64,000 nucleotides of DNA, from assembly GCA_016219965.1 (NCBI GenBank), contig JACRJM010000015.1:31857-95856 (forward strand), given 5' to 3'. The first letter of the stretch is position 1. Each line of letters opens with the position of its first letter. The position numbers were made by a program, and so were the translations under genes. The DNA is from Candidatus Schekmanbacteria bacterium (GTDB taxonomy: Bacteria; Schekmanbacteria; GWA2-38-11; J061). Under the pieces are notes generated by a model. It saw nothing but the letters and a program-made list of their open reading frames with translations. It was not told where the DNA came from and did no database searches. This document shows, one piece after another, positions 29,180-47,495 of this stretch.

Positions 29180-30295
29180 ATGTCAAAAATGAATGTATTA
29201 CATTTAATATATTCCCTACATACTGGTGGTGCAGAAAAAGTTATTGAAAATTACTCAAAATTTCATGATAGGAATTTTTTCAAGCCAATAGTTTGTTCTA
29301 TAACGGATGGGGGAATAATTGTAGATGAAATAAAAAAAACAGGAACAGACGTTTTTTTGCTCAACAAAAAAGGGATGTTTGATGTAAGCGCAGTTTTGCG
29401 ATTAGCAAGGATAATTAAATCACAAAATATTCATATCGTACATGTCCACAATTTCTCGGCAAATTTTTGGGGAACTATAACGGCGGTTTTATGTGGCGTA
29501 CGTTTTATAGTAAGAACTGAGCACAGTATCATTAATAAACGCAAGAGTTTATTCAGGATCAAATATTTCATTAATTCATTATTAGATATTTTTCAAAAAA
29601 AAATAATTTGCGTATCTGAAGAAGTTAGATCAGTGCATGTTAAGAGAAATACCTTGTCTCCTAAAAAATATATTACCATTTATAATGGTGTTGATTCACG
29701 TATTTTTAATGATAGTTATGAAACTTCAAAATATTTTAAAGAATTTAATATAGAAGCAGGTTGTAAAATAGTTGTTAAAATTGCGAGCTTAACTTCACAT
29801 AAAGGTCATGAATATTTTTTGAGGGCTGCCAAGAAAGTGCTAGATGAAGAGAAGAAAGTACTTTTTATTATTGTGGGAGATGGGCCAAGAAAAGATGAAT
29901 TGACAAAACTTGCTAAAGAGCTTGGGATTAAAAATAGTGTTGTATTTACTGGTGTTAGAAAAGATATTAATGGGATTTTAAAACTATCTGATATATTTGT
30001 ACTTTCATCTCTTAGGGAAGGATTTCCTATAACTATTCTTGAAGCAATGGCTGCTTCAAAGCCTGTTATTGTTACTAACGTTGGTGGCACTCCAGAAGCT
30101 GTAATTGAAGGAGCAACCGGATTAATTGTTCAACCAAAGGATGAAATGGCTATGGCAAAGGCAATTCTTCTCTTGTTAAGAGATGAGAAACTAAGACAAA
30201 TAATGGGAAAAAAGGGTAGGGAAAGGTTTGAGATAAATTTTAAAGCTGAATCTATGGTCCGGAAAACAGAAGATGTTTACAGAACATTTGTATAG
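29180..30295 (+). CDS. Glycosyltransferase family 4
   Basis: EGFPITILEAMAASKPVIVTNVGGTPEAV GT4 signature. Confidence 0.8.
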   Translation: MSKMNVLHLIYSLHTGGAEKVIENYSKFHDRNFFKPIVCSITDGGIIVDEIKKTGTDVFLLNKKGMFDVSAVLRLARIIKSQNIHIVHVHNFSANFWGTITAVLCGVRFIVRTEHSIINKRKSLFRIKYFINSLLDIFQKKIICVSEEVRSVHVKRNTLSPKKYITIYNGVDSRIFNDSYETSKYFKEFNIEAGCKIVVKIASLTSHKGHEYFLRAAKKVLDEEKKVLFIIVGDGPRKDELTKLAKELGIKNSVVFTGVRKDINGILKLSDIFVLSSLREGFPITILEAMAASKPVIVTNVGGTPEAVIEGATGLIVQPKDEMAMAKAILLLLRDEKLRQIMGKKGRERFEINFKAESMVRKTEDVYRTFV

Positions 30296-30302
30296 GAAAT
30301 TT

Positions 30303-31526
30303 ATGTTAAAAAAAAGAAATTATTTGAATTTATTTTTTTGTATTTTATTTTTATTAGCCAACCCACCTTCTTCAATTTCCAAAATATTTTATGTAAGTAA
30401 ATCTGGAAATGACCATAATCCAGGTACAAGTGAAAAACCTTTCTACTCTATTCAGAAATCAGTAGATTCTTTAAAACATGATGGAGATGAAATATTAATA
30501 TTCCCAGGAGATTATTATGAGTCGGTTTTAATTAATAATTCAAAAAAAATAATTGGCGTTAAAATAAAAAGCACAGATGAGATAGTTAATATTTTTCCAG
30601 ATGATACAAAGCCTGCATTGACTTTAAAATACGCTATTAATTGGAGAATTGAGGGAATAAACTTTTGCGGAAATAATGCAAAAGATATTGTATTAATATA
30701 TAGGTCACCCGGAAGCATTATAGAAAATTGTATGGTTAGTGGTGGCAGTAGCAGCAGCATTGCTTTCAGAGCTGTATATATTCTGAGTTCACCAAACTTT
30801 GTAATAAGTAACTCCACAATTGATGCATTTTCTGAGAATAACATAATGGCTTTTATGTCAGAGAACTTGTTAATTAAAGGAAATAATTTGAGCAATTCGA
30901 ATGCTATAACAATTGGTTTTGATGCAGGATGTAATTATACTGTTTGCGAAGAAAATTATATACACGATAGACTCTTGCCTGGAATAAAAGAAAGAGTAAT
31001 TATTCAGTGCAGAGAAAACATTGGTTCAACGATAAGACGCAATCTGATTGTTGAAAGACAAGATAACTCTTTCTTAGATGCGATTTTGATAAGAGGACCT
31101 GGAAATCCTTCAAAAAGCGTTTTGGTTGAAAATAATACATTGATTGGTCCTTCATCGCAGACGGCCATTGGGATTGCAGCGAACACATTGTCATCTGTAT
31201 GCAGAAATAATATTGTGGTTGGATTTAGAAATGCTATAAAAGTTAAATTTCCTTCTACACCATTAGCTAAACCTGAAGTTAAAGTGGATTGTAATGATTT
31301 CTATAATATCGCTGGTTCAGTTTATGATGATAATGTTGGTCTATGTAAGATAGGTAGCGCAAATATATCGAGTGACCCACTTTTTTCAGATACAGTGTAT
31401 TATAAGCTAAATCCAGGAAGCCCCTGTATTGACTCCGGGGATCCATCTTCAGCATTGCTCCCTGGAGGTGGAAAACGTATTGATATTGGCAGGCATGAAT
31501 ATTATCAGCAAGTGCAATTGCCATAG
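30303..31526 (+). CDS. Secreted right-handed parallel beta-helix protein (pectin-lyase-fold), paralog of the N-terminal ~400 aa of 48012-50849
   Basis: Signal peptide, then KIFYVSKSGNDHNPGTSEKPFYSIQKSVDS. Beta-helix repeat blocks align with the 945-aa paralog (ENCMVSGGSSS/ENCTVSGGSTS, EENYIHDR, IIQCR.N.GS). The ATG at 30303 is preferred over 30273, which would overlap the upstream gene. Confidence 0.55.
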   Translation: MLKKRNYLNLFFCILFLLANPPSSISKIFYVSKSGNDHNPGTSEKPFYSIQKSVDSLKHDGDEILIFPGDYYESVLINNSKKIIGVKIKSTDEIVNIFPDDTKPALTLKYAINWRIEGINFCGNNAKDIVLIYRSPGSIIENCMVSGGSSSSIAFRAVYILSSPNFVISNSTIDAFSENNIMAFMSENLLIKGNNLSNSNAITIGFDAGCNYTVCEENYIHDRLLPGIKERVIIQCRENIGSTIRRNLIVERQDNSFLDAILIRGPGNPSKSVLVENNTLIGPSSQTAIGIAANTLSSVCRNNIVVGFRNAIKVKFPSTPLAKPEVKVDCNDFYNIAGSVYDDNVGLCKIGSANISSDPLFSDTVYYKLNPGSPCIDSGDPSSALLPGGGKRIDIGRHEYYQQVQLP

Positions 31527-31527
31527 A

Positions 31528-31559
31528 GTTAGCGAGCGAATTCAATATAATGACAAAAT
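31528..31559 (+). repeat. Copy A of a 32-nt repeated element, GTTAGCGAGCGAAT-N8-ATGACAAAAT
   Basis: 28/32 identical to the element at 44256-44287. Copy A starts 2 nt after the beta-helix gene stop and opens a 25-codon ORF beginning MTK. Confidence 0.5.
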
Positions 31560-31627
31560 TCTTACATTATGAAGAATCCCTATCTCATGTTGTGGTAGTA
31601 TCAATTTATTTAAGTGATGAATAATTT

Positions 31628-32854
31628 ATGGCAATTAAAGTTGCTTATATTGTTGCAAGGTTCCCATCTGTGTCTCAGACATTCATACTTAGAGAGATTT
31701 TGGAATTATGTAATCAAGGTTTTGACATAACGATATTTCCTCTAAAATCTAAGCCAGACAAGCTTACTCACAATGATGCAAAAAAGGTCTTAAATAAAGT
31801 TTATAGTATTTCACCATTTTCAATAAAAGTACTAATGTCTCAAATTTATTTTTTTCTTACCTCACCTTTGAAGTATTTTTATTTGATATATTTTGTCGTA
31901 AAAAATAATTTAAGAAATCCTTATGCGTTAACTATATCACTTGGATTAATTCCAAAATCTGTGCATATTGCACTCATGATTAAACGTCAGAAAATATGCC
32001 ATATCCATGCGCATATGGCTACATTTCAAGCATCATGTGCATTGTTTATATCTGTTCTAACTGGTGTTCCTTTTTCTTTTACTGCACACGCCACTGACAT
32101 TAGAGGAGATCAAGCTGATAGGACTCATGATGGGACAAATATGCTACAGGAAAAATTAGAAAGAGCAAAATTTATTGTTACATGTACAGATGATAATGTG
32201 ATTTATTTGAGAAATAAACACAGAGATATTGCGCCAGAAAAAATTATACTAAACTATCATGGGATAGATACTGATAAATTTTCTCCAAAAAAATGTGAAG
32301 AACAGCCTCCTCTTATATTGGCTGTTGGAAGATTATTAGAATGTAAAGGTTTTGAGTATCTAATAGATGCTTGCAAAATTCTTAGAGAGAAGAATTTGAG
32401 TTTCAAGTGTATGATTGTAGGGGATGGGCCTGATAAAGGTATACTGAAGAAAAGAATTGATAATTCTGACTTGGGAAATATTGTTGAATTAGCTGGCGCA
32501 AAATCGCAGGAGGAATTGATAGAATTGTATAATAAAGCTTCTCTTTTTGTTTTGCCGTCCATTTCTGAAAGTCACTTTGGGATACCCAATACTCTTTTTG
32601 AGGCAATGTCAATGACAGTTCCGGTTATTGTTTCAAATCTTCCAGCTGTTAAAGAGCTTATAGTTTCACGGGATGAGGGTATCGTAATCCCTGAAAAAAA
32701 TGTTTATATTTTGGTTAAGGAAATTGAACAGCTTTTGAGAGATAGTCAGTTAAGGAAAATGATTGGGAAAAATGCTAGAAAAAAGATTATAGAAAACTTC
32801 AGCGTTAAAGAGAAAGTTAAAGAATTAAGATATATTTTTGAAAATAAAATATGA
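31628..32854 (+). CDS. Glycosyltransferase family 4
   Basis: C-terminal ESHFGIPNTLFEAMSMTVPVIVSNL GT4 motif; N-terminal GT-B domain. Confidence 0.75.
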   Translation: MAIKVAYIVARFPSVSQTFILREILELCNQGFDITIFPLKSKPDKLTHNDAKKVLNKVYSISPFSIKVLMSQIYFFLTSPLKYFYLIYFVVKNNLRNPYALTISLGLIPKSVHIALMIKRQKICHIHAHMATFQASCALFISVLTGVPFSFTAHATDIRGDQADRTHDGTNMLQEKLERAKFIVTCTDDNVIYLRNKHRDIAPEKIILNYHGIDTDKFSPKKCEEQPPLILAVGRLLECKGFEYLIDACKILREKNLSFKCMIVGDGPDKGILKKRIDNSDLGNIVELAGAKSQEELIELYNKASLFVLPSISESHFGIPNTLFEAMSMTVPVIVSNLPAVKELIVSRDEGIVIPEKNVYILVKEIEQLLRDSQLRKMIGKNARKKIIENFSVKEKVKELRYIFENKI

Positions 32855-33987
32855 CTTTTATTTTTTATTTACTGATTTTTATAGTTGTTTATGTGTATTT
32901 CGGATACTACTCGTTGCTCCGAATGCTGGAAATCTTTTCAAGGCAAAAAATAATTATTGGAGACTATGTTCCTACCGTTACTCTGTTTGTTCCTGTTTTT
33001 AATGAAGAAAAGATTATTAGAAAAAAAATTGAAAATTCAATTGGAATTGACTATCCAAAAGAAAAAATTGAGATTGTTTTTTATTCTGATAACTCGTCTG
33101 ATGAGACAGATCAGATAATAAATGAATATATAGGTACAGGAATAAAACTTTATAGGGCGGATACTAGAAGGGGAAAAAATTATCTAATAAATAATTCTTT
33201 TGAAAAAATGAATGGTGATATTATCGTATTTTCTGATGCAAATTCACTTTACAGAAAGGATGCTATAAAACTTTTAGTGAGAAACTTTAAAGACCAAACA
33301 GTAGGGTGTGTTTGCGGAAAACTGGTTTATATAAGTGATGCAAATTCTTTAGTCGGCAAAGGGGAGAGTTTATATTTTAAATATGAATCTACTTTAAAAA
33401 GGCTAGAGAGTGTTTTTGGAAGTGTCGTTACTGGAAACGGGGCAATTTATGCGATACGTAAAAATTTACTTTCGCAGTTACCTGAAGAAGTACCTAATGA
33501 TTTTGCTCATCCAATTGAAATAAAAGCAAAAGGATTTAAAGTGATTTATGAACCATTAGCTATTGCTGAAGAAAGGGCTACTGTCTCTACTGCCGAAGAA
33601 TTTAGACGACGAGTTAGAATCGTACTTAGAAGTTTCACAGCGTTTATTTTTTATCAAAAAAAATATAATATTTTAAAAAATTCATATTCCTTTTTCTTTA
33701 TTTCTCATAAGCTTTTAAGATGGTTCATTTTCCCTTTAATGGTTCTTATTTTTTTTATAAATCTTTCTTTGAATGGATATTATGCTAATATATTGTTATA
33801 TATTCAGTGTATCTTTTATATTAGTGCGTTAATTGGTTTTATTTGTCAAAAAATGGACTTTAAAATTAAGGTATTTTATATTCCTTTTTATTTTTGTTTA
33901 ATAAACTTAGCGGGAGCTTTGGGTATATTGAAATACTTTATAGGGAAAAAAGAAATTATGTGGGATATAGCGGAAACAACCCGATAA
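32851..33987 (+). CDS. Glycosyltransferase family 2 (membrane-associated, processive-like)
   Basis: N-terminal TM, GT-A fold with DNSSDET (DxD-like) and FSDANS motifs, and C-terminal TM helices. Its start overlaps the upstream gene by 4 nt. Confidence 0.7.
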   Translation: MTFIFYLLIFIVVYVYFGYYSLLRMLEIFSRQKIIIGDYVPTVTLFVPVFNEEKIIRKKIENSIGIDYPKEKIEIVFYSDNSSDETDQIINEYIGTGIKLYRADTRRGKNYLINNSFEKMNGDIIVFSDANSLYRKDAIKLLVRNFKDQTVGCVCGKLVYISDANSLVGKGESLYFKYESTLKRLESVFGSVVTGNGAIYAIRKNLLSQLPEEVPNDFAHPIEIKAKGFKVIYEPLAIAEERATVSTAEEFRRRVRIVLRSFTAFIFYQKKYNILKNSYSFFFISHKLLRWFIFPLMVLIFFINLSLNGYYANILLYIQCIFYISALIGFICQKMDFKIKVFYIPFYFCLINLAGALGILKYFIGKKEIMWDIAETTR

Positions 33988-34019
33988 TTTTATTAAAATT
34001 ATAATTATGCAAATATTAT

Positions 34020-34607
34020 ATGGAAAATAGAAAGAACTCAACTCCAAGAAACAATCCAAAAGTCACAGATTATTTTGAGGTGCTTAGGTTTATTTTCTCA
34101 TTTTCTCTTTATAAGGAGCTGATATTTAAATTCGCTTATTTTATTCATGATCATGTGGCTCCTTTAAAAGAAATGCATATAGCAGGTAATCCTCGTATTC
34201 ATCCGTCTGCATCATTGCGGTGCGGTAAAAATATCTATTTGGGAAATAATTCACATATTAACCAGTTTTGCTGTGTATGGGCAAGCCCGGAATCAAAAAT
34301 TGTTATAGGTGATAATTTATTAATGGGGCCTGGCGTAAAGATATTTTCTTCAAACCATGGGACAGATAAAAATACTCCGATGAATCTTCAAAAATTTTCT
34401 GAGAAAGATATAAAAATTGGCAATGATGTTTGGATAGGTGCAAATTCAGTAGTCCTTTCCGGTGTTGACATAGGAGATGGTGTAATTGTTGCTGCAGGTT
34501 CAGTTGTAACGAAAGATATTCCTTCATTTACTATAGCTGGAGGTGTACCTGCAAAAGTTATTAAGCAAAGAGAGAAAAAAATCCTTGATGAAATTATAGG
34601 TAAATAA
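34020..34607 (+). CDS. Hexapeptide-repeat acetyltransferase (left-handed beta-helix, WcaF/maltose O-acetyltransferase-like)
   Basis: Tandem hexapeptide repeats ([31 protein letters not shown]). Confidence 0.75.
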
Positions 34608-34609
34608 CT

Positions 34610-35449
34610 GTGAGTAATAAATCTAAAAGAGATACATTTTTTTTTATTGTAGTTCTAATTACGTTTCTTCTACTTTACAGTAAAACGATTATTTGGTTAG
34701 GAAGTCGATGGTACAATGATGAGGATTACTCTCACGGACCATTAATTCCACTTGTTTCAGGTTATCTTATATGGATAAAAAGGGACAAACTAAAGCAAAT
34801 AGAACTATCGACAAATATAGTAGGGCTCTATTTGCTGATCGTGTCTCTTTTAATCCATGTCTTCAGTATAAGGGCGGAGGTTAGTTTTACATCAGCGTAT
34901 TCATTAATTTTGTCAACTGCTGGTATAGTCCTTTATTTTTTTGGCCGCAATTTATTTAACGAAGTAATTTTCCCAATCGGTTATCTTGTTTTTATGGTTC
35001 CTTTTTTCCAGTTTATTATTGATCCATTGTCAAATAAACTGAAACTGTTTTCAGCTTACTTGTCAGCAGAAATAATCGATCTTGCAGGTATTCCAGTGTA
35101 TAGGGATGGTGTTATGTTGCATCTTGCTACAGGCTCTCTTGAAGTTGCAAATCCTTGTAGCGGAATAAGATCAATAATATCGCTTTTAGCTCTCGGAACT
35201 ATATTCTCATATTTTTCGACTACTACAATGACGAATAGAATTTTGCTAGTTTGTTCTACAATTCCTCTTGCCGTTGTTGGCAATTTGGCAAGAATAGTTT
35301 TTTCAGGAGTAATGACAAATGCAGGTATAGATGTTACTACTGGATTCATACATACTCTCACTGGTTTAATCGTTTTTGCAGTTGCATTTGCAGGCCTTAT
35401 TGGTGTCAGGAAACTTCTTATATGGAAAAGCGAAATAAAAAATATTTAA
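34610..35449 (+). CDS. xrtA: Exosortase (EpsH; XrtA-type transpeptidase of the PEP-CTERM system)
   Basis: Eight-TM protein with exosortase active-site motifs ANPCSGIRS (Cys), GNLARIVFSG (Arg) and the downstream His region. Followed by EpsI and PrsK/PrsR, opposite PrsT. Confidence 0.8.
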   Translation: MSNKSKRDTFFFIVVLITFLLLYSKTIIWLGSRWYNDEDYSHGPLIPLVSGYLIWIKRDKLKQIELSTNIVGLYLLIVSLLIHVFSIRAEVSFTSAYSLILSTAGIVLYFFGRNLFNEVIFPIGYLVFMVPFFQFIIDPLSNKLKLFSAYLSAEIIDLAGIPVYRDGVMLHLATGSLEVANPCSGIRSIISLLALGTIFSYFSTTTMTNRILLVCSTIPLAVVGNLARIVFSGVMTNAGIDVTTGFIHTLTGLIVFAVAFAGLIGVRKLLIWKSEIKNI

Positions 35450-36075
35450 TAGTTATTGCATGTCTTTCTATTGTGACATGTTATTCATTATTAATATTTA
35501 AACCAAGTGACCGCTCTTTTGTCGCTCAACGCTTAAAAGAATTTCCACGAAACTTTGGCAAATGGGAATTTATAAGAGATGTGGAGATGCAAGAACAAAT
35601 AATAAGCGCACTGGACCCCAGTTCAATAGTTTTTAGAGAATATAGAAATCCTGAAGGCAAAAAAATGTGGCTTTGTATAGTGTACCACCAAAATGATAGA
35701 TGGGGTGCTCATGATCCACAAGTATGTTATAAATCGCAGGGTTGGGATATAGCAAATTATGGTGGCAAGTATGAAACCACTCAGATTCATATAAAAGAAA
35801 CAGATGTTGATATAAACAGATTCTATGTAAGCAAGGGAGGGTTTAAAGAGGTTGTTTACTACTGGTGGTTTGGTTCAAAGAAAAAACAGATGACAACAAG
35901 GTTTCAACAAATGCTTGATCTTGCCATTAATGGAGTTCTTTACGGTTATAACGACAGCGGTTTTATTCGAGTATCGATAAATCTTGAAGAAGGACACGAA
36001 GACGAATGTAAAAAGGCTGGGTATGAATTTGCAAAAGCAGTATCCTCTCTTATAGTAGCCTATCTTCCGGACTAG
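35422..36075 (+). CDS. epsI: EpsI-family exosortase-associated protein
   Basis: Starts at the internal ATG (MEKRNKKY) with an N-terminal TM. The 35251 start in the ORF track would run out of frame through the exosortase. Position immediately 3' of exosortase is typical. Confidence 0.6.
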   Translation: MEKRNKKYLIVIACLSIVTCYSLLIFKPSDRSFVAQRLKEFPRNFGKWEFIRDVEMQEQIISALDPSSIVFREYRNPEGKKMWLCIVYHQNDRWGAHDPQVCYKSQGWDIANYGGKYETTQIHIKETDVDINRFYVSKGGFKEVVYYWWFGSKKKQMTTRFQQMLDLAINGVLYGYNDSGFIRVSINLEEGHEDECKKAGYEFAKAVSSLIVAYLPD

Positions 36076-36077
36076 AA

Positions 36078-38201
36078 ATGGTAGGACTTATTTTAGCACC
36101 ATCAGCGCTGTGTTTCATTCTTCTGATTCCTCTTAGCTTCTATGTTTTAAGCAAGAATCCCAAGGAACTTCCTAACATCTCTTTTGCAATTGCCACCGGG
36201 ACTTTGGCATTAGTTGAGTTAGGGAAGTTTATGTTTCTCCTTAATCCAGTGTCTTGGACAGCAGATATATGGCTTAAATGTTTTTGGGGTGGATTAGTAT
36301 CAATGCCGGTATCGTGGCTTTTCTTCAGCCTCATATTTGCAAGAGAAGGCTATAATCCAATAATTACGAAATGGCGTTGGGGCCTGACAGGGGTTTCACT
36401 CGCATCAGCGGCAGCAATTCTCGTTGTTACTAAAGATGATAAAGCTATTTATCCTGCTGTTGTCGGCAAAACTCCGGGAGTAGTTCTTGGGGCTGACAGC
36501 TATTTTATGTGTATATATCTTATGCTCGCATTTGTCCTCGTAATAGTTAATTTTGAAAACACATTAAGAAACGCATCGGGCCCAATTAAAAGACAGATAA
36601 AATATGCAATAGTTGGAATAATTGGAGTCTTCTCATTCTTTATATATATTTTGACTGAAGCACTTTTATATTCTTTTATCGCAGTTAAACTTTTATTTGC
36701 CGGTTCATGCATCACTATAATTTTAACACTGGTCCTATATTTTTCTATTATAAGATACCGTATGCTCGATGTTCACGTCTTCATTTCCAGATATGTTATT
36801 TACAGGTCAGTTTCAATCCTTGCAGTTGGCATCTATTTATTATTAACTGGAACATTGTTACAGCTTACTGAGGTTCTTGGAGGTAGTTTTTACCAATATT
36901 TTAAACCGGTAATGGTTTTTGTCGCAGTAGCTTTGTTCGCAATATTGTTACTATCAGACAGAGTGAGGCGAAAACTTCAAATATTTATTAGTAAGAATTT
37001 TTTTGCCAATAAATATGATTACCGTTACGTCTGGTCTCAATTTACAGAAAAACTTGGCTACACGGTAAAGATTAATGAAATGTTGCCGGAAATTGCCGAG
37101 ATGATTGCCGGAATTATGTGGGTTGAATCAGTTTCAATCTGGTTGTATGATGAGGAAGTTAAGGGATACAAGGTGGCAGAATATTTTAATCTCATGGAGA
37201 TGAAAGATGTAATAATAAAAAGTGACGATTTTATTGTTAAAGCACTTGAAGAACAGGAAATATTAGATCTTACAAAGCTTACGGAAAGTTCGGATGTTCA
37301 AGATTTAGACAAGGCTATATTTATGTCTAACACCTTAAATGCACGTGTAGTGGTCTCAATGAAAAATCAAGAGGGGTTAATGGGTTTTATTGCAGTTGGT
37401 AGCGAAATAACTGGAGAACATTTTAATTATGAAGATTATGAACTGCTTCAGACATTAGCAAGGCAATCGGCAAACCTAATTCAAAATGCTATGCTTTCTG
37501 AAAGATTAATGATTTCACAGCAAATGGAATCTGTTACCAGAGTTGCATCATTTATAATTCATGATCTCAAGAATCTTATATCAACACTGGATATGCTTTT
37601 AGATAATAGCAGGGAATATATTGATAATCCTGAATTTCAGAAAGACTTGATAATCACACTCGAAAATACTGTAAAAAAGATGCGCAGGATGATGGAGAGA
37701 GTTTCTACAAAACCGCAGGAGACAAATTTTATCTTTGAACCTGTCAACTTAATTAATATAATTAGAAATAGCATCGAGGAGGTCCGTCTGGAGAATAATC
37801 CTAAAGTTAAATTGATGAAATCCTTTGACGAAAATGACTCAGTTGTAACTATGGGAGATGAAAAATCATTGAATAAAGTTTTTACAAATATCTTGATAAA
37901 TGCAATGCAGGCTTTGCCTTCAATTGGAGGAGTTATAGATATTAGCGTAAACAAAAATAACGATAGAATTAATGTTTCTATTTCAGATAATGGGAAAGGA
38001 ATAACACAAGACTTCATAAAAAAAAGTCTTTTTAAACCATTTCAGACTACTAAAGAGGGAGGTTTAGGTATAGGATTGTACCAATGCAAAACTATTATTG
38101 GAGCACATGAAAAGGCAACATTAGATGTCGAAAGCGAAAAGGGGAAGGGAGCAAAATTTATAATAAGCTTTCCTATCAGTGAAAGAGGTGCAGTAAATTG
38201 A
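36078..38201 (+). CDS. prsK: PEP-CTERM system sensor histidine kinase PrsK (polytopic N-terminus, GAF, HisKA, HATPase)
   Basis: About 700 aa with ~8 N-terminal TM helices, a GAF-like middle, a His box (FIIHDLKNL) and a HATPase_c G-box (DNGKGI...GGLGIGL). Adjacent to exosortase and PrsR. Confidence 0.75.
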   Translation: MVGLILAPSALCFILLIPLSFYVLSKNPKELPNISFAIATGTLALVELGKFMFLLNPVSWTADIWLKCFWGGLVSMPVSWLFFSLIFAREGYNPIITKWRWGLTGVSLASAAAILVVTKDDKAIYPAVVGKTPGVVLGADSYFMCIYLMLAFVLVIVNFENTLRNASGPIKRQIKYAIVGIIGVFSFFIYILTEALLYSFIAVKLLFAGSCITIILTLVLYFSIIRYRMLDVHVFISRYVIYRSVSILAVGIYLLLTGTLLQLTEVLGGSFYQYFKPVMVFVAVALFAILLLSDRVRRKLQIFISKNFFANKYDYRYVWSQFTEKLGYTVKINEMLPEIAEMIAGIMWVESVSIWLYDEEVKGYKVAEYFNLMEMKDVIIKSDDFIVKALEEQEILDLTKLTESSDVQDLDKAIFMSNTLNARVVVSMKNQEGLMGFIAVGSEITGEHFNYEDYELLQTLARQSANLIQNAMLSERLMISQQMESVTRVASFIIHDLKNLISTLDMLLDNSREYIDNPEFQKDLIITLENTVKKMRRMMERVSTKPQETNFIFEPVNLINIIRNSIEEVRLENNPKVKLMKSFDENDSVVTMGDEKSLNKVFTNILINAMQALPSIGGVIDISVNKNNDRINVSISDNGKGITQDFIKKSLFKPFQTTKEGGLGIGLYQCKTIIGAHEKATLDVESEKGKGAKFIISFPISERGAVN

Positions 38202-39559
38202 CAAAAAAACAAAAACTCTTAATTGTTGAAGATGACCGTGAAGCATTAAGGCAGTTAGATTGGGCATTTTCTAGGTTTTATAAAGTTATAAAGACTGATA
38301 CTGAGGAACAGGCCATTGAATTATTTATTGAACAACAGCCGCGTGTAGTATTGCTCGATCTTTCTCTTAGCGATGACCAGGAAGAACAGGAAGGGTTTAG
38401 AATATTGGAAAAAGTGTTAAGCCTTGATCCTCTTACTAAGGTTATTGTTGTTACAGGACATGATGAGGACAAAGCAGCTATCAAAGCAATAAGACTTGGT
38501 GCATGGGATTATTATATTAAACCTGTAAAGCCGTCAGAATTAAGAGCTATGGTAGATAGGGCTTACCATATAAGTGACATTGAGGAGAAAAGCTTAACCA
38601 ATGCAAGAAAAGAGTTTGACGAGAACAAATATGGTGAGATTGTAGGAGGATGTCCTGAAATTAAAGAAGTAATGCAGTTTATTGATAATGTCGCTGGAAC
38701 TGAGACAACAGTATTAATCCTTGGTGAAAGTGGCACCGGGAAAGAACTAGTGGCTCGTGCTATCCATAATTCCAGCAAGAGAAAAGAAAAGCCTTTCATT
38801 GTAATAAACTGTGGTGCAATCCCTGAAAACCTGCTGGAAAGTGAGCTTTTTGGACACGAGAAAGGTTCTTTTACAGGAGCTTACGCACAAAAAAAAGGAA
38901 AATTGGAGTTGGCGGAAGAAGGAACTATATTCCTTGATGAAATAGGTGAAATTCCACCAATACTTCAAGTAAAATTGCTCAGGTTCCTTCAGGAGAAAGA
39001 GTTTGAACGTGTTGGCGGCACAAAGCAGATTAAAGTTAATGCGAGGATAATAGTTGCAACTAACAGAGATTTGAAGACTGATATGAATGAAGGTAAATTC
39101 AGAGAAGACCTTTATTATCGTTTGAATGTTGTTTCAGTAACATTGCCGCCTTTAAGAGAGAGGGGAAATGATGTAATACTGATTGCAAGATTTTTGGTAG
39201 ACAAATATTGTGCTGAAAACAATATTCCTCCAAAATCTCTGAGTAGAGAAGCAGAGCTGGCAATTAGAAAATATCAGTGGCCAGGGAATATAAGGGAATT
39301 GGAAAATCTCACAAAAAGAGCAATAATCATGTCTCCAGGGAGTTTGCTTTTCCCCTCTGACCTGGGATTAAAAGAAACGGCAGAGTCAAAATGCCTCTTA
39401 ACACTAAAAGAAGCAAAAGAAGAAATAGAGAGGAAATGTCTGCTTGATGCTCTTGAAAAAAATAATGGATTTGTAAGCAGAGCTGCTAAAGATTTAGGTG
39501 TAAGTAGAGGAACATTTTACGATTTATTGAAAAAACATGGGATTGAAATTGAAGAATAA
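38198..39559 (+). CDS. prsR: PEP-CTERM-box sigma-54-dependent response regulator PrsR
   Basis: REC domain, AAA+ sigma-54 activator domain (GESGTGKE, GSFTGA, Walker B FLDEIG) and a C-terminal HTH. Its start overlaps prsK by 4 nt. Confidence 0.8.
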   Translation: MTKKQKLLIVEDDREALRQLDWAFSRFYKVIKTDTEEQAIELFIEQQPRVVLLDLSLSDDQEEQEGFRILEKVLSLDPLTKVIVVTGHDEDKAAIKAIRLGAWDYYIKPVKPSELRAMVDRAYHISDIEEKSLTNARKEFDENKYGEIVGGCPEIKEVMQFIDNVAGTETTVLILGESGTGKELVARAIHNSSKRKEKPFIVINCGAIPENLLESELFGHEKGSFTGAYAQKKGKLELAEEGTIFLDEIGEIPPILQVKLLRFLQEKEFERVGGTKQIKVNARIIVATNRDLKTDMNEGKFREDLYYRLNVVSVTLPPLRERGNDVILIARFLVDKYCAENNIPPKSLSREAELAIRKYQWPGNIRELENLTKRAIIMSPGSLLFPSDLGLKETAESKCLLTLKEAKEEIERKCLLDALEKNNGFVSRAAKDLGVSRGTFYDLLKKHGIEIEE

Positions 39560-39679
39560 ATTCTTGGAATTTAGATTCTTCATATAAAACATACTGAGTA
39601 CTAATTGTGTTTATAGTTCATATCCCAGTCAATAGTTTTAGTTTAATTTGTCACCTGTAGCTAATAATAAAAAAAGTCG

Positions 39680-41191
39680 ATGGGAAAAAACAATAAAAAA
39701 ATTTTACTTATTACTCCCCCTTATTACAGATTATATAACAGTAGATATTCGCTCAATCGTTATCCCCTGTCATTAGGTTATTTGTCAGGAGCAATATTGG
39801 ATAATACTTCATGGGAAGTTATGACTTACAATGCTGATTTCTGTCAAGATAATGAGCAGCTGCAAGTTAGTTATTTAGCAGGAGAAGGATTTAATAATTA
39901 TCTAAAAAACATCAATGATCTGACAAGCAGCATATGGGATGAAGTTAAAGAAACGATAAGGGATTTTAATCCTTCTGTAATAGGATTATCCTGTATGACT
40001 CAGAATTTTAAGGGAGCATACAACATTGCCAAAATTGCTAAAGAACTAAATGAGGATATTCTTGTTATAGTTGGCGGTCCACATGCAAACATGTTTTTAT
40101 CGGAAGTCTTAGACTATCCTTACATTGATATATGTGCTGTCGGAGAGGGAGAGGAAACTATTGTCGAATTGTTAAATACTATTGACGGTAACAATGATTT
40201 TAATACTGTTACGGGAATTATATATAGAATAGATGGGAAGGTTGTCGTGAATCAACCGAGAGAACTTCTTAAAGATTTAGATTCTCTTTCTTTCCCTCAT
40301 AAATATGCTCATAAGGTTTTAAAAAATTATGATAGATATCCAGTCGAAGCTTTCCACAACATTTTTGCTATAAGAGGGTGTCCTTTTAACTGTATTTTTT
40401 GTGGTTCTATTTATATTTGGGGCAGAAAACCAAGATATCGTTCTATAGACAATGTAATTGAAGAGATAAGAAACCTGAGCAGAATGGGGGTTAAAAGAAT
40501 AAGCTTTGAAGATGATTCGTTCGGGATTAAAAAGTCTTATATCTTGGAGTTAGCTGAAAAAATTAATGTAAATTGCCCCAGTGTAAAATGGTCCTGCGAA
40601 ATGCACGTAAAAACCGTTACTGAAGAGATTGTGTCTGCTATGAGCGATTCTGGTTGTTGCAAAATTACATTGGGTGTTGAATCCGGGAACAACGATATTT
40701 TAAAGAAGATACGTAAAAAAAATACAATAGAAGATTGCATCCATGCGGGCAAAATTATATCGAAGTTCAATATTGAATTAGGTGCATTCTTTATGGTTGG
40801 GTTTCCATGGGAGACAGAAGAAACCCTGAAAGATACAATTAGGGCAATGAAGAAACTTAATGCTGATTATTCAGTGTATAGTATTTTTACACCATATAAA
40901 GGGTCTGAAGCTTTCAGTATCTGCAAAGATATGGGGTTGATAAGCGATGATTATGATTTTTCCATATATAATCACCAGAGTCCATTAAACTGTTTCTGTA
41001 AAAATATTTCCAAAGAAAGATTTAGAAAAATATGTTCTAAAATGGAAAGGATAAGCGATAAAAGAGGTATCTATTATCAATTAATCAAACCGTTAACATC
41101 TTTAAAAACCATCAGAAAAATTAAAAATAAAGGGCTGAAAGGAGTCATTAAAAAAGTCAGAAACTTAGCTTTAGCATCAACTAAAAAGTAA
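39680..41191 (+). CDS. B12-binding (class B) radical SAM protein, paralog of 6029-7402
   Basis: B12-binding-like N-domain (VGGPHAN, VGEGEE) and the rSAM triad GCPFNCIFC. IW-RK-RYRS, FEDD and ETEET blocks align with the paralog. Confidence 0.8.
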   Translation: MGKNNKKILLITPPYYRLYNSRYSLNRYPLSLGYLSGAILDNTSWEVMTYNADFCQDNEQLQVSYLAGEGFNNYLKNINDLTSSIWDEVKETIRDFNPSVIGLSCMTQNFKGAYNIAKIAKELNEDILVIVGGPHANMFLSEVLDYPYIDICAVGEGEETIVELLNTIDGNNDFNTVTGIIYRIDGKVVVNQPRELLKDLDSLSFPHKYAHKVLKNYDRYPVEAFHNIFAIRGCPFNCIFCGSIYIWGRKPRYRSIDNVIEEIRNLSRMGVKRISFEDDSFGIKKSYILELAEKINVNCPSVKWSCEMHVKTVTEEIVSAMSDSGCCKITLGVESGNNDILKKIRKKNTIEDCIHAGKIISKFNIELGAFFMVGFPWETEETLKDTIRAMKKLNADYSVYSIFTPYKGSEAFSICKDMGLISDDYDFSIYNHQSPLNCFCKNISKERFRKICSKMERISDKRGIYYQLIKPLTSLKTIRKIKNKGLKGVIKKVRNLALASTKK

Positions 41192-41255
41192 ACCCCTCTC
41201 GAAAACAAAATTGTTTTTTATCTCGTATTTTCTTCTATTTTAGAAATAAAGCCTT

Positions 41256-44075
41256 TTACATTCCGTTGAGCAGTTTTCTTACTTCATCTAATTCAGGAAA
41301 ATTTGTTGACAGACTAAGGGCTTTTTGAAATTCAGATTTCGCCCTGCTTTTATCTCCTTCACGCATATAAGCTAAGCCCATATGATAATGAATTGTTGGG
41401 TCATCGGGAACAAGTTTTAAGGCTTCCTGGAACTTTTCTTTGGATTCTTTAATCATTCCTTTTTTAAAGTATACCCAGCCTAATGTATCAATGACCCCTC
41501 CGTTATTTGGAGCCAGTTTTACGGCTTTTTGAGCCATACTTACTGCTTCATTCATATTCTTTCCAGTTTCTGCATATACCCATGCAAGGTTATTTTGAGC
41601 AAGGGGAATATCCGGAGATATTTTTATTGCTTCGTTGTAGTTTAAAATGGACTTGTCAAAATTTTTCTGGGTTTGATAAATTGATCCAAGCTTAGTATAT
41701 ATATCAGCTCGTATTAATTGCAGTTCCTTATCACTGTTTTTAGGAATTAACTCTAACGCTTTATTGTAATGATTAATAGCTTCATCTCTGTTGCTGCGTT
41801 TCATAGATAGTTCTGCAAGATTGATTGCAGGGAGTGGTGATTTCGGAAATTGAGCTGAAGCTTTTTCTAGGATTCCCATGGCATTAGCATAATCCCCTTT
41901 TTCCGAGTAAATTTTGCTTTGAAGTGTATAAGGTAACAAAGAATTTATTTTAGGACCTTGAACTGCTTTTGCAATCTGAAGGGCTTCGTCGAAACGTTTG
42001 AGCGATGTCAATAATGATATTTTCTGAACTTTTATTTCTACTGAATCCGGGGATTTTGTAAGGGCTTTATCTATCTGCTCAAGCGCCTGATTAAAGTCCT
42101 TCTTAACAGCATAAAGAGAAGCCAGTCTAAGATAACCAAGGGGTTTATCTGGCTGTAAGGATATTATCTTTTGATATGTTTGTTCTGCTTCATCCATTTT
42201 TTTATTTTTTACATAGAATGATGCTAAATAGTCATAACCAGCAATAGCCTTCTCATCACTTTTTATCATTCTTTCAGCAGTTTCTTTAAGCTTATCATCC
42301 TGATTTGACTTTGCATATATACTTGCCAGATCAGCAAGCAATACATTATTGGCGGCAGTCTGCTTGATTCCGTTTTCAAGTATATCTATTGCCTGCTTGG
42401 TGTTCTCCTTCTGGAGGCTCAGTGCTGCAAGTCTCTTTATTAAACCTATATTAGCAGGTGATTTAGCAAGTGCTTTACTAAGAATGTTTTCAGCTTTTCC
42501 TATGTCCTGTTGTTTTATATAGATTGTAGACAAGTTAATGTAAGATGAAATAACATCAGGCGATTTCCCAATAGCTGTCTGATAAATATCTATTGCTTTA
42601 GCAGGCTCGTTTTTTCCAAAATAGGCAGAACCCAATAGATTCAACAAAGTAGGATTATCTTTAGAGCGTTTTAATCCTTCTTGGCACTCTGATATTGCCT
42701 TATCATACTGTTGTGATTGTAAATAATAAGCAATAATTGTAATTCTTGCATCTAGAAAATTCGGATTTACCTCAAGTGCTTTTTCAAATTCACTAATAGC
42801 ATTATCATTTTTCCCGGTTGATGCATAAAACTTTCCAAGGTTCAAATAAGATGGAGCAAATTCCGGATTGATTTCTATGGCTTTAGATAATTCCTTCTCA
42901 GCTTTGTCAAATTGTTTTGTCTGGGCATATGCCTGGGCAAGAGTAGCGTAAGCCAGAGGATTATCAGGTGCAGACTGTGCTATTTTCTGGAATTCCTGGA
43001 GGGCTTCATCATTCCATCCCTGTTTCAGATAAAGCGTACCTAAATAAAGATTGGCCAAAGTAAAAGACGGTTTTATTCTCAATACTGTCTTTAATTCAGT
43101 TATTGCCTGCTGCATGTTGCCCTTTTCCGCTTGCGCCAAAGCGAAATAAAATCTTGCTTCAGCGAATCCGGGTCCTTTTTTTACAGATTGTTCTAATTCT
43201 GAAAACGCAGCATCAATTTTGCCCTGTCTAAGACGGGCAACTCCCTTAAGGTAATTTCCTCCTGCAAGCTTAAAGTCTATTTTGTTGAGGGTTTCCCCCT
43301 CCTCGATCGCTGCATCAAATTTTTTCTGGTCTAAATAAAGTGAACCTAGAAGAAAACGTGTGTCATAGTGATTAGGATTAATCTGTAAGGCCTTTTTAAA
43401 AGTTTGTTCGGCGTTTGTATAATCTTTTTTCTGAATATAGAAGTTTGCTAAGCTTAATATTCCCTCAAAGTCCTTTGGGGCTAATTCCAGAGATTTTTTG
43501 TAGAAGGCTTCTGCTTCATCAAATTTCTTTTCGCGCATATATAGATGCCCCCTGCTTATGTAAACCTTAGAAAAGGCAGGGTCCATTTGAATGACCTGCT
43601 TGAAATATGAATCTGCTTTATCGAAATCATTTTTTGCTGTCCAGGCCATTCCTATAGCATTTAAACACTGTTTGTTATTAGGATCTTTTTTTATTAAACT
43701 TTCCAGACTTTTCAGTGCATCGTCCGCTTTCCCTCTGCTCAAATTTATAAGTCCCATTTGCAACAGAAGATCATTGTTTTCAAACTTAAGTCCATTTGCT
43801 TTTTCAAACTGTTCGAGTGCTTTATCGTACTCCCGTCTCCCCATGTACGATTTTCCGAGATAATACAATGTCTCTCCAGACTGGGGGTCAATTTTTAATG
43901 CATTCTTAAGTTCAATTATGGCTCCGTTATATTCTTCTTTTTCAATTAAGCTCTTGGCTTTGATTATATGTTTTTCAATTTTTTCTTTTGGACTTTGGCA
44001 GGAAGTTAGTATAAATAGTGTTAGCAGTATATTCACAGAAAGAAATGAGAAACGGAATATGGCTGATTTTTTCAT
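41256..44075 (-). CDS. prsT: PEP-CTERM system TPR-repeat lipoprotein PrsT
   Basis: 939 aa with a lipoprotein signal (LTSC lipobox) and more than 20 TPR repeats. Size and neighbourhood match PrsT. Confidence 0.75.
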   Translation of the reverse strand: MKKSAIFRFSFLSVNILLTLFILTSCQSPKEKIEKHIIKAKSLIEKEEYNGAIIELKNALKIDPQSGETLYYLGKSYMGRREYDKALEQFEKANGLKFENNDLLLQMGLINLSRGKADDALKSLESLIKKDPNNKQCLNAIGMAWTAKNDFDKADSYFKQVIQMDPAFSKVYISRGHLYMREKKFDEAEAFYKKSLELAPKDFEGILSLANFYIQKKDYTNAEQTFKKALQINPNHYDTRFLLGSLYLDQKKFDAAIEEGETLNKIDFKLAGGNYLKGVARLRQGKIDAAFSELEQSVKKGPGFAEARFYFALAQAEKGNMQQAITELKTVLRIKPSFTLANLYLGTLYLKQGWNDEALQEFQKIAQSAPDNPLAYATLAQAYAQTKQFDKAEKELSKAIEINPEFAPSYLNLGKFYASTGKNDNAISEFEKALEVNPNFLDARITIIAYYLQSQQYDKAISECQEGLKRSKDNPTLLNLLGSAYFGKNEPAKAIDIYQTAIGKSPDVISSYINLSTIYIKQQDIGKAENILSKALAKSPANIGLIKRLAALSLQKENTKQAIDILENGIKQTAANNVLLADLASIYAKSNQDDKLKETAERMIKSDEKAIAGYDYLASFYVKNKKMDEAEQTYQKIISLQPDKPLGYLRLASLYAVKKDFNQALEQIDKALTKSPDSVEIKVQKISLLTSLKRFDEALQIAKAVQGPKINSLLPYTLQSKIYSEKGDYANAMGILEKASAQFPKSPLPAINLAELSMKRSNRDEAINHYNKALELIPKNSDKELQLIRADIYTKLGSIYQTQKNFDKSILNYNEAIKISPDIPLAQNNLAWVYAETGKNMNEAVSMAQKAVKLAPNNGGVIDTLGWVYFKKGMIKESKEKFQEALKLVPDDPTIHYHMGLAYMREGDKSRAKSEFQKALSLSTNFPELDEVRKLLNGM

Positions 44076-44255
44076 TTATTTCTCCGCAATAGGGTTAATT
44101 TAACTTAGTATTATGAAACCGAAAGTTATAGAGTTCAATTTTCTTTGTCAAGATTACTTTTTATATTTTTGTTCATATTATTTTACCACATAACTGGTTT
44201 ATAATTTACTTATTAATTATGAATAATGAGTGCATTTCACTTGGTCTGCTATCGG

Positions 44256-44287
44256 GTTAGCGAGCGAATATAATTAAATGACAAAAT
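44256..44287 (+). repeat. Copy B of the 32-nt repeated element, overlapping the start codon of the histidine kinase gene
   Basis: GTTAGCGAGCGAAT ataattaa ATGACAAAAT; the ATG at 44278 is the annotated start of the kinase. See copy A. Confidence 0.5.
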
Positions 44288-45522
44288 CCATAGATATGAA
44301 TAATCCCCCAACTTCCGCTACGAGCGTTTCAAATGGATCATCTGAAAAAAATAATCTATTTTATGAAAAAGAGTTTGTAAGAAGAATTTTCACCATTCTT
44401 TTCCTGCTCGTCGGAGTAACTACAATACATTATACTACTCCGTTAGCTTTTACACAGTATCATTATGTTTTTGCCAGAATGTACTATATCCCAATAATAC
44501 TTGGCTCCTTCTGGTATGGTCTGAAAGGAGGGTTCATAGTATCATTTTGTTCGGCAGTACTTTATGGCCCTCATATTTTCTTCCAATGGCGGACAGCCGG
44601 CATGGGCACATTAAACGAATACCTTGAGATAGCGATTTATATGGCTGTAGGTATTGTTACAGGTTTTATGGCTGATCAGGAGAAAGTTCTGAGATTTAAG
44701 TATCAGAAGGCTGCTGATGACCTTGAGAAATCCTATGAAAAACTTAAGGAGCAGGCAAGACAGCTCCTTGAAAAAGAACAGCAACTTATACGAGCAGACA
44801 GACTTGCCACTATGGGGGAGCTTGCTGCAAGTTTAACCCATGAGGTTAGAAATCCTCTCGGCTCAATATTGGGGAGTGCGGAGATACTTAAGGATGACTA
44901 TAAACCGGGTGACGTGAAATATGAGTTTCTTGAAATAATGATAAAAGAAGCCAACAGGTTAGACAGAGTAATTAATAACTTTTTGTCATTTGCACGGTCT
45001 AACAAACCTGATATCAAGGAATTTGATATTAATTCCTCGATCCTTGACATAAAGGAACTTGTGGAAATTGGAGCTGCTAAAAAAGGTATAACCATCAACA
45101 CAAACCTTGATGGCAAAATAGGGAAAATCAATGCCGACGAAGAGCAGATAAAACAAGCTATTTTAAATGTTCTTTTAAACTCCATCCAGGCCATGGATAA
45201 AAATGGGAGAATCACTATTTCCACGTTCCAAGAAAGCAGCGGGACCTCTGCAAGAGATTTATCTGAACAGGAAATTACAGTCGGGAAAATGCCTGCTGTG
45301 CAATGTGTCAATATATCGTTTACCGATAATGGCTCAGGTATAATTCCGGAAAACATGGAAAAAATCTTCAATCCTTTTTTTACTACAAGAGAGAACGGCA
45401 CTGGATTGGGACTTTCCATAACACGAAGAATAATAGAAAATCATAGAGGTTCTATTCATGTGCAGTCAAGAGTGAATGAGGGTACTACTTTTGTTATTAA
45501 ACTTCCTCTCAGGGAATTTTGA
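44278..45522 (+). CDS. Sensor histidine kinase (four-TM N-terminus, HisKA + HATPase; NtrB/AtoS-like)
   Basis: H-box LTHEVRNPLGSI and ATPase boxes (NLDGKIGK..., DNGSGI, GTGLGLSI). The true start may be the Met at 44296. Confidence 0.75.
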   Translation: MTKSIDMNNPPTSATSVSNGSSEKNNLFYEKEFVRRIFTILFLLVGVTTIHYTTPLAFTQYHYVFARMYYIPIILGSFWYGLKGGFIVSFCSAVLYGPHIFFQWRTAGMGTLNEYLEIAIYMAVGIVTGFMADQEKVLRFKYQKAADDLEKSYEKLKEQARQLLEKEQQLIRADRLATMGELAASLTHEVRNPLGSILGSAEILKDDYKPGDVKYEFLEIMIKEANRLDRVINNFLSFARSNKPDIKEFDINSSILDIKELVEIGAAKKGITINTNLDGKIGKINADEEQIKQAILNVLLNSIQAMDKNGRITISTFQESSGTSARDLSEQEITVGKMPAVQCVNISFTDNGSGIIPENMEKIFNPFFTTRENGTGLGLSITRRIIENHRGSIHVQSRVNEGTTFVIKLPLREF

Positions 45523-46889
45523 AAATGGATAATTCTGACATAAAGATATTGTTGATTGATGATGACGACAGTCTGAGGAGGGTTATAGAACATAATCTTT
45601 GCGAAGAAGGATATAAAGTTATTTCAGCTTCCGGAGGCAGTGCCGGAATAAAAATCCTGATGGAGAGCGAGTTTGACATAGTAATTACTGATTTGAAGAT
45701 GCCTGACATTGACGGCATGGAAGTTCTCGGGACTGTTAAATCCCATAATAAGGATATACCGGTTATTATGATAACTGCATTTGGCACCATAGAACAGGCA
45801 GTCGCTGCATTAAAATCCGGAGCTTTCGATTATCTTACTAAACCTTTTAACCGCGACGAACTTAAAATAACTGTAAAAAAGGCACTTGAACTTAGAAGCC
45901 TGCGCGGTGAGAATTTAAGGCTGAAGGCTGAGCTTTCAGGAAAATTCAGTTTTGATTCGCTTATCTATGGAAGCCCTGTTATGAACGATATAGTTGAACT
46001 GCTCCGTAAGGTGTCTTATTCAGATTCAACTGTAATGCTTCTCGGGGAGAGTGGGACAGGAAAAGAACTTATAGCAAAAGCCATTCACTACAACAGCCCG
46101 AGAAACAAGGGGCCATTTGTGATAGTAAACTGCGCTGCTATACCTGATGAACTTTTGGAAAGCGAGCTTTTCGGACATTCTAAAGGTGCCTTTACCGGAG
46201 CTTACAGCGAAAAAAAAGGAAAGTTTGAATATGCAGATTCAGGGACAATTTTTCTCGATGAAATTGGGGATCTGAAACCTTCCCTGCAGGCAAAGCTGCT
46301 TCGTGTATTGCAGGAAAAAAAAATAGACAAGGTCGGCAGCTCCGTACAGGTTGATGTTGATGTGAGGATAATTTCTGCGACTAACAGGGATTTAAAAAAA
46401 ATGATTTCAGATAGTTTGTTCCGGGAGGATCTGTTCTACCGTCTCAGCGTAATTCCGGTAAGGATTCCGCCTTTGCGTGAAAGAAGGGACGATATCCCTC
46501 TCTTGCTGGACTATTTTATTAAGAAAAACAGCAAACAAAGAAAGCTTGTGGTAACTTCGGAAGCCCTTGCAATACTAACTAATTACAGCTGGAGAGGGAA
46601 TGTAAGAGAGTTAGAAAATCTCATTGAAAGGCTTACTGTCATTAAAAGTGATTCCACTATAATACCAGCGGATCTGCCCGAAGAAATGACTTCATGTTCA
46701 TCTGTTGCAGGAGGTGTTATTTGTGCTTTACCTGAAGAAGGACTTTCTCTCGATGAACTGGAGCGGGATATTATTTTAAAAGCCCTTGAAAAAAATGAAT
46801 GGAATCAGTCAAAGGCAGCGAAATATTTGGATATGACCAGGCCTACGCTTATATACCGTATGGAAAAATATAATATTAAAAAACCTTAA
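45519..46889 (+). CDS. Sigma-54-dependent response regulator (NtrC family: REC-AAA+-HTH)
   Basis: REC (DLKMPDIDG), GESGTGKE, GAFTGA, ESELFGH and a C-terminal Fis-type HTH. Overlaps the kinase stop by 4 nt. Confidence 0.85.
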   Translation: MKMDNSDIKILLIDDDDSLRRVIEHNLCEEGYKVISASGGSAGIKILMESEFDIVITDLKMPDIDGMEVLGTVKSHNKDIPVIMITAFGTIEQAVAALKSGAFDYLTKPFNRDELKITVKKALELRSLRGENLRLKAELSGKFSFDSLIYGSPVMNDIVELLRKVSYSDSTVMLLGESGTGKELIAKAIHYNSPRNKGPFVIVNCAAIPDELLESELFGHSKGAFTGAYSEKKGKFEYADSGTIFLDEIGDLKPSLQAKLLRVLQEKKIDKVGSSVQVDVDVRIISATNRDLKKMISDSLFREDLFYRLSVIPVRIPPLRERRDDIPLLLDYFIKKNSKQRKLVVTSEALAILTNYSWRGNVRELENLIERLTVIKSDSTIIPADLPEEMTSCSSVAGGVICALPEEGLSLDELERDIILKALEKNEWNQSKAAKYLDMTRPTLIYRMEKYNIKKP

Positions 46890-47478: not shown

Positions 47479-47495
47479 TAAGGTATCAGGTTATA

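Follow-up and report, generated by a model that had tools for sequence, protein, structure and literature searches.

A duplicated kinase-start sequence at an insertion junction in a Candidatus Schekmanbacteria exopolysaccharide locus is probably a rearrangement scar

A 62-nt sequence spanning the start codon of the histidine kinase gene HK2 (copy B) is present a second time ~12.7 kb upstream (copy A), at the point where a beta-helix gene, beta-helix A, has entered an exopolysaccharide (EPS) operon of Candidatus Schekmanbacteria. The two copies are truly homologous over sharp limits and are under unequal constraint, and it is probable, in our judgement, that copy B is the working initiation region of HK2 whereas copy A is a non-functional ectopic duplicate, which lies at the insertion junction and is drifting near-neutrally. 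All that copy A would then provide is the end of the beta-helix A reading frame, stop included, and some of the spacer leading to the next gene, which encodes an EpsE-like GT4 protein (hereafter GT).

A preliminary description of the window (the whole 64,000-nt stretch of DNA analysed here) had offered two readings of this repeat, one as a shared cis-regulatory box, possibly a PEP-CTERM box, coupled to a leaderless start, and the other as the scar of a duplication or recombination event that moved a beta-helix gene. The box was not borne out, as copy A is unconserved, the features of such a box are absent and the 24-aa peptide that copy A could encode is unconserved too. The scar stands in its general form, with copy A at an insertion junction and changing at about the neutral rate, but not in a version where it marks the duplication of beta-helix A from its downstream paralogue, given that the two beta-helix genes share only 43% of their third codon positions against an identity of 80% for the duplicated patch.

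Gene context and extent of the repeat

The window holds a PEP-CTERM/XrtA exopolysaccharide locus from a Candidatus Schekmanbacteria MAG with a genome of ~34% GC. A plus-strand gene array extends from ~11.5 kb to 41.2 kb and includes genes for Wza-like and Wzz/GNVR proteins, a priming transferase, a flippase, Wzy and several GT proteins; the genes around the two copies are listed in Table 1, together with the features discussed below. The product of HK2 is identical to an annotated protein (P0001) in an NCBI Candidatus Schekmanbacteria MAG, and the response regulator gene RR2 is followed by the genes for RNase HII and L19 on the minus strand and then by beta-helix B.

Table 1. Positions in the window of the two copies, the inverted repeat and the neighbouring genes.
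Feature	Position	Strand	Remarks
GT4	29180		
Beta-helix gene A, Pel9A-like/Beta_helix, 407 aa	30303..31526	+	Pfam and locus annotation
Inverted-repeat arm 1, 28 nt	31498..31525	+	End of beta-helix A, including its last codons
Copy A, probable ectopic decaying copy	31519..31580	+	50/62 identity to copy B
32-nt core (14-mer, N8, 10-mer), copy A	31528..31559	+	
Inverted-repeat arm 2, 28 nt	31627..31654	+	Native GT4 (EpsE-like) start codon and first 9 codons
GT4 (EpsE-like; GT in the text)	31628-32854	+	
GT2	32851		
Acetyltransferase	34020		
Exosortase XrtA	34610		
EpsI	35251		
PrsK	36078		
PrsR	38198		
B12-binding radical-SAM gene	39680-41191		Between prsR and prsT
PrsT	41256-44075	-	
TTTGTCAAG block, probable -35 of HK2 promoter	44144..44152	+	~128-130 nt 5' of start
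Copy B, native conserved copy	44247..44308	+	Last 31 nt of HK2 leader and first 10 codons
32-nt core, copy B	44256..44287	+	
Copy B start codons	ATG 44278; second in-frame ATG 44296	+	Copy B runs from -31 to +31 around the start
HK2, AtoS/NtrB-like histidine kinase, 414 aa	44278..45522	+	
Sigma-54-dependent response regulator (RR2)	45519-46889		3' of HK2
Beta-helix B, beta-helix and ASH/choice-of-anchor-D domains, 945 aa	48012..50849	+	Ancient paralogue of A

Two places near the locus vary in gene content between lineages. The prsR-prsT interval, which here carries a B12-binding radical-SAM gene (a second such gene lies at 6029-7402), contains PEP-CTERM protein genes in loci L042 and L043 and no called gene in L044. 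Beta-helix B is found between rplS and the RNA-methyltransferase/trmD genes of an rpsP-rimM-trmD-rplS cluster (47841-50919), a position which is without beta-helix B in L044-L046 (L044 9551-9776) and where the 94% relative introduced below has an extra 552-aa gene with no Pfam match (L031 4726-6789); the rplS-trmD site resembles an insertion hot spot.

The repeat had been reported as GTTAGCGAGCGAAT-N8-ATGACAAAAT, and this pattern was recovered at both sites with 28 of 32 positions identical without gaps, as were the kinase start at the first ATG of copy B and the short ORF opened by the corresponding ATG of copy A (24 aa, 31550-31624). Homology extends beyond those 32 nt to 62 nt in a gapped alignment, in which 50 positions are identical and there is one 1-nt indel, and it takes in a third block (TATGAAgAATCCC versus TATGAAtAATCCCC) that in copy B contains the second in-frame ATG. 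In copy A the extra nucleotide shifts the frame between its two ATGs, and its first 8 nt form the last codons and TAG stop of beta-helix A. Outside the ends of the 62 nt, on either side, the alignment was no better than that of shuffled sequences, the left edge of copy A being uncertain between 31519 and 31528.

How significant the repeat appears varies with the scoring scheme. The ungapped score of 20 (+1/-2) was marginal, being matched by 3 of 100 shuffled windows, whereas the gapped score of 55.2 bits clearly exceeded the top-scoring pairs of 60 Markov-2 shuffles, one pair per shuffle (mean 35.4, sd 2.3, maximum 41), showing that the repeat is true homology and not chance. The 14-mer has only two sites on both strands of the window, even with up to 2 mismatches allowed, and ATGACAAAAT also occurs twice. 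No match to the rest of the spacer behind copy A (31581-31627) was found in the HK2/beta-helix B region, and a 20/22 match between 31625 and 47689, which falls inside rplS, was set aside as chance. The hexamer AGTGCA, which had been remarked upon upstream of both copies, carries no meaning, as there are 16 occurrences in the window and its distance to the core differs between the copies; the close relative has AATGTA at one site and AGAGCA at the other.

Divergence of the two copies in a close relative

The window was compared with a close relative (HK2 94% and GT 95% identical at the amino acid level) that is represented by short contigs from three sources (L031-L033 and L038-L039); the best kinase match in the genome collection, at 51% aa identity, is too far away for footprinting. 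Copy B differs from the relative (L031) at just 1 of 62 positions, compared with 17 of 83 positions in its immediate flanks (21 nt before and 62 nt after; P = 5.5e-4) and 10.5% of third codon positions in the neighbouring genes (P = 0.016). Copy B is thus conserved only over the patch, and this explains simply where detectable similarity between the copies begins and ends. The copy B RNA is less stable when folded than 198 of 200 shuffles, which fits an open translation-initiation region, and copy A alone has an unremarkable fold (z = -0.15). The flanks of copy B are hypervariable (18% for 44309-44370 and 29% for 44226-44246, against ~10% for third positions), and this stretch takes in residues 14-32 of the N-terminal tail of the kinase.

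Copy A differs from the relative (L038) in 13 of 67 alignment columns, made up of 7 substitutions, an insertion of 5 nt and a deletion of 1 nt, a divergence indistinguishable from that of third codon positions in the flanking genes (12.5%; P = 0.13). It had diverged more than copy B (P = 0.0012), a contrast of rates which, with a sole close lineage for comparison, is based on a few dozen sites. The copies are therefore under unequal constraint and copy A drifts at about the neutral rate. In the relative the 14-mer of copy A reads GTTAATGAGCGAAT, with two substitutions, the spacer behind it is 13 nt long instead of 8 (five bases inserted), one base has been deleted directly before the 14-mer and a CCC has become TTT. 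All five substitutions in the relative's copy A that could be polarised, using copy B as the outgroup, run from G/C to A/T, as would be expected of DNA free of constraint at a genomic GC content of 34%. Counting against a scar, ATGACAAAAT and GAGCGAAT are identical in all four copies.

The short ORF of copy A (MTKFLHYEESLSHVVVVSIYLSDE) remains open in the relative (MTKSLYYEEFLSPFVVASIYLSDE in L038), but 6 of its 24 residues differ, by way of 7 nucleotide changes, and no changed codon is synonymous-only, while the flanking proteins are 91-95% identical. The peptide is therefore not conserved and, judged by this pattern of substitution, the plus-strand ORF is probably not a gene. Beta-helix A of the relative stops 9 nt (three codons) sooner, ending in QQM, and so the tail of the protein that is encoded by the junction is dispensable.

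Anatomy and age of the junction

In locus L040 of a more distant relative, whose GT and GT4 proteins are 66% and 58% identical to those of the window, a gap of 23 nt, with no beta-helix gene in it, separates the orthologous GT4 and GT genes, and the downstream order of GT2, acetyltransferase, XrtA, EpsI, PrsK and PrsR is kept. Beta-helix A and its 101-nt tail are therefore a lineage-specific insertion of ~1.3 kb in the EPS operon. At the other copy, prsT and HK2-RR2 are adjacent and divergent in all of the other Schekmanbacteria loci examined (L002, L042, L043 and L044-L046); taken with the gene order in L040, this makes both flanking adjacencies ancestral, and the novelty is beta-helix A with its tail. 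The MTK-type start ATGACAAAA also begins the GT gene of L040, which was discounted as a coincidence, MTK starts being common in AT-rich genomes.

The 101-nt spacer that carries copy A is bracketed by an inverted repeat, whose arms are complementary at 22 of 28 positions. It is the sole such pair in the 64-kb window, and one occurrence was found in 20 shuffled windows; the arm-arm duplex has a predicted energy of -23.1 kcal/mol, whereas 1000 shuffles of arm 1 averaged -7.0 kcal/mol and reached -17.0 kcal/mol at best. Arm 2 is native GT coding sequence, its residues AIKVAYIVARFPS aligning with KIKLAYIVARFPS in L040. Arm 1 starts where the homology to beta-helix B stops, near 31501. It codes for the dispensable protein tail and shares the hexamer TGCCAT with the left edge of copy A, a hexamer similar both to the GT start read in reverse complement (TTGCCATA) and to the TGCTAT before the 14-mer in copy B. 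The junction consequently reads, in order, beta-helix domain, inverted GT-start patch, direct HK2-start patch, 47 unmatched nucleotides and GT gene.

The patch does not date from the duplication of the beta-helix genes. Residues 1-406 of beta-helix B match the full length of beta-helix A with 53% amino acid identity, but the identity of the third codon positions (43%) and fourfold sites (39%) of the two genes is near to the 31% expected by chance, so that the paralogy is close to saturation and the patch, at 80% identity, is much younger. On these silent-site identities the patch is not a relic of the copying of beta-helix B, and it would have been added when beta-helix A was inserted, or its 3' end remodelled, before the split from the 94-95% relative. 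A model of tandem duplication through a circular intermediate, in which the end of beta-helix B was joined to the start of HK2, was dropped for the same reason, the paralogues being far older than the patch. The nearest non-self homologue of beta-helix A (P0127, 49%) lies in an unrelated context with no kinase near.

The arrangement could be accounted for by a beta-helix gene being inserted, or having its end remodelled, inside the EPS operon, with short templated patches being copied from nearby gene starts during the repair, the GT start in inverted and the HK2 start in direct orientation. Repair of this type would be by template switching or illegitimate recombination, the patches overlapping at the TGCYAT microhomology. 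We infer this mechanism of patch copying from the mosaic anatomy of the junction and its microhomology, and the copying would have run from B to A, a direction made less certain by the N terminus of HK2 here, whose first ~13 residues lack an equivalent in the other Schekmanbacteria. The feature is of an ordinary kind. Templated filler DNA at rearrangement junctions likewise consists of short, abutting patches of nearby origin (here 28 nt inverted and 62 nt direct), and the likeness extends to the overlap of 5/6 nucleotides of microhomology (TGCYAT) at the end of the inserted gene and to the roughly neutral drift of the patch. What differs is that the event here is old (~20% diverged), predates the 94-95% split and is known from anatomy alone, with no intermediate or empty-site allele within the same species.

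In the mRNA, the two arms are predicted to form a long-range helix, whose opposite strands contain the beta-helix A stop codon and the GT AUG. Pair probabilities in its core (31516-31527 with 31625-31636) are 0.64-1.0, or 0.59-0.92 in a 400-nt context. The helix is also predicted, and is longer, in the relative (L038), where none of 200 shuffles gives as stable a fold for the region (z = -3.1) and where both substitutions in arm 1 fall at unpaired positions; the window version is no more stable than shuffles (z = -0.9). Copy A sits in the loop and adds nothing conserved to the helix, which is predicted from two sequences only. The helix could give translational coupling or occlusion of the GT start, but it could equally be a passive result of the inverted patch; the spacer may have some role at the RNA level.

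Regulatory and other alternative readings

As described by Haft et al. 2006 (PMC1569441), the PEP-CTERM box consists of a 17-nt motif with TTTACA at its end, a spacer of ~63 nt and then a sigma-54 -24/-12 element, which is ~71 nt 5' of PEP-CTERM genes. The -24(GG)/-12(GC) element lies 32-92 nt 3' of motif 1, within a large (>200 nt) non-coding region, and there are many copies per genome; the box was described only for Proteobacteria (PMC1569441). The window does contain XrtA, EpsI, PrsK, PrsR and PrsT, the setting in which such a box would be expected, but neither copy precedes a PEP-CTERM gene and there are two copies only, one of them decaying. Copy A sits in a spacer of just 101 nt before GT and copy B runs across the start codon of a histidine kinase gene, where the box expects more than 200 nt of non-coding DNA. 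No TTTACA or TGTAAA was found within 31300-31700 or 44000-44400, and no GG-N10-GC (TGGCAC-N5-TTGC register) on either strand of 31400-31640 or 44076-44300. The pattern search that the preliminary description had proposed turned up no added sites beside PEP-CTERM or beta-helix genes, either in the window or in JGI metagenomes that include the relative, where a scan for the 14-mer-N8-ATGAC pattern returned copy B of the relative, three matches on unrelated GC-rich contigs and nothing else. The three were judged to be chance, two being within sigma-54 activator genes (L034 and L037) and one in L035; more copies may lie in this genome beyond the window. Good sigma-54-like sites were seen elsewhere in the window, on the plus strand, at 16456-16471 (TGGCATAATACTTGCT, ~30 nt before the priming sugar transferase gene at 16501) and at 9282-9297 (TGGCACAAATGTTGCT, ~40 nt before a PocR-GAF-GGDEF gene at 9339), and these are likelier targets of the sigma-54 activators of the locus than the reported motif.

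A scan for sigma-70 consensus elements, which is weak in AT-rich DNA, found no -35/-10 pair common to both copies; a TATAAT is present in each, offset by 3 nt and with no credible -35. The 14-mer is missing 5' of the HK2 orthologues in five other Schekmanbacteria lineages (among them L002, L042, L043 and L044). The four named lineages do have a block reading TTTGTCAAGG (or TTTTTCAAGG in L042) 5' of HK2, which in L002 (4397-4426) is part of TTGTCA-17-TATAAT, and the similar block of the window (Table 1) places the HK2 promoter probably outside the duplicated patch. With the block ~130 nt 5' of HK2, transcripts of the kinase operon would begin with a 5' leader of ~100-120 nt.

These results bear directly on the idea of a shared DNA box, in which one regulator (PrsR, RR2 or another) would bind the GC-rich 14-mer, alone or together with the 10-mer, as an operator or promoter element and so control both HK2 and the GT-XrtA-PrsK/R block. 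In favour of it, two blocks match perfectly across a spacer that varies, and both sites are intergenic, just 5' of genes in one EPS/PEP-CTERM locus; copy B stands out as a conserved island, and both copies contain TATAAT. We nevertheless consider it unlikely: both the 14-mer and the spacing of copy A are changed in a relative only ~6% diverged, the motif is missing 5' of HK2 in the four lineages named above, neither a GG-N10-GC sigma-54 element nor TTTACA is near either copy, the weak sigma-70 scan turned up no -35/-10 pair common to the copies, no further exact copies came from the scans, and the limits of similarity follow simply from the conservation of copy B. A target at the RNA level, where a small RNA (sRNA) or RNA-binding protein would act on the HK2 initiation region and on copy A, or a structured intergenic RNA would gate GT translation, draws on the duplicated stretch being centred on a start codon, the usual zone for sRNA targeting, and on copy A being inside the strongly predicted helix that would occlude the GT start, with its z of -3.1 in the relative. 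Such a target is very unlikely in view of the near-neutral drift of copy A, indels included, of a window fold which is not above shuffles either for the region or for the patch alone, and of the patch taking no part in the helix, which the inverted-repeat arms make up; the covariance models of Rfam 15 also gave no match at E<=1 on either strand of 30000-48200. Long-range mRNA pairing of a cistron end with the next start is known to bring about translational coupling or occlusion, as in the RNA phage MS2 and in E. coli infC-rpmI-rplT, and the flanking inverted repeat, with stop and AUG in opposite arms and a predicted helix of 12-16 bp in both genomes, is similar to these; here, however, the pairing is a prediction from two sequences and its loop of 101-114 nt, copy A included, is unconserved. 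We accordingly give very little weight to the whole 157-nt unit (31498-31654) being a working switch, in which the helix would tie translation of GT-XrtA-EpsI-PrsK-PrsR to beta-helix A and a single factor in trans, whether an sRNA or a protein binding RNA or DNA, would be able to act through the captured HK2 region on the kinase and the exosortase block alike.

Between the direct repeats lie precisely the core XrtA/Prs genes (31581-44246), and the inverted repeat surrounds a short segment just 5' of GT in the manner of polysaccharide invertons, so that the copies might be seen as recombination sites, either att-like ends of an excisable 12.7-kb XrtA/PrsK/PrsR/PrsT module or parts of a phase-variable 101-nt inverton. 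Invertible promoters are found 5' of capsular and EPS loci, as at the Bacteroides fragilis polysaccharide loci and, in E. coli, at fimS, and the window resembles them in having a short segment, flanked by inverted repeats, directly 5' of a polysaccharide glycosyltransferase gene. Recombination sites are highly improbable here, though, as the GT4-GT and prsT-HK2 adjacencies are ancestral and the 12.7-kb block is hence not an insert, the longest perfect match between the copies is 14 nt, copy A is decaying, and the spacer has the same orientation in three independent assemblies. The arms also overlap coding sequence, arm 2 being native to GT, and are only 79% complementary, and no recombinase, invertase or transposase domain was found by Pfam in the ORFs scanned across the 64 kb, four of which have no Pfam match. 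A dispersed repeat or MITE was rejected, there being only two copies in the window and, in JGI metagenomes, none besides copy B of the relative, and the inverted repeat using the native start codons of GT as an arm. Chance similarity in AT-rich DNA, or a true micro-gene for the 24-aa peptide, could appeal to the ungapped score that 3 of 100 shuffles attain and to the ORF being open in the relative, but both are hardly credible beside a gapped score of 55.2 bits against a shuffle maximum of 41 and a peptide with a quarter of its residues (6/24) changed and none of its codon changes synonymous-only.

A rearrangement scar at copy A therefore remains our preferred reading, and the value of the finding is mainly as a negative result, in that the motif should not be treated as a PEP-CTERM/exosortase box or as a signal for leaderless starts. 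By hiding the GT start, the predicted helix could link how the exosortase block and the inserted gene are expressed, and it is the sole part which may merit experiment. The junction also documents how a Schekmanbacteria EPS operon took up an accessory gene for a polysaccharide-lyase-like beta-helix protein, which left behind a composite of short, probably templated patches.
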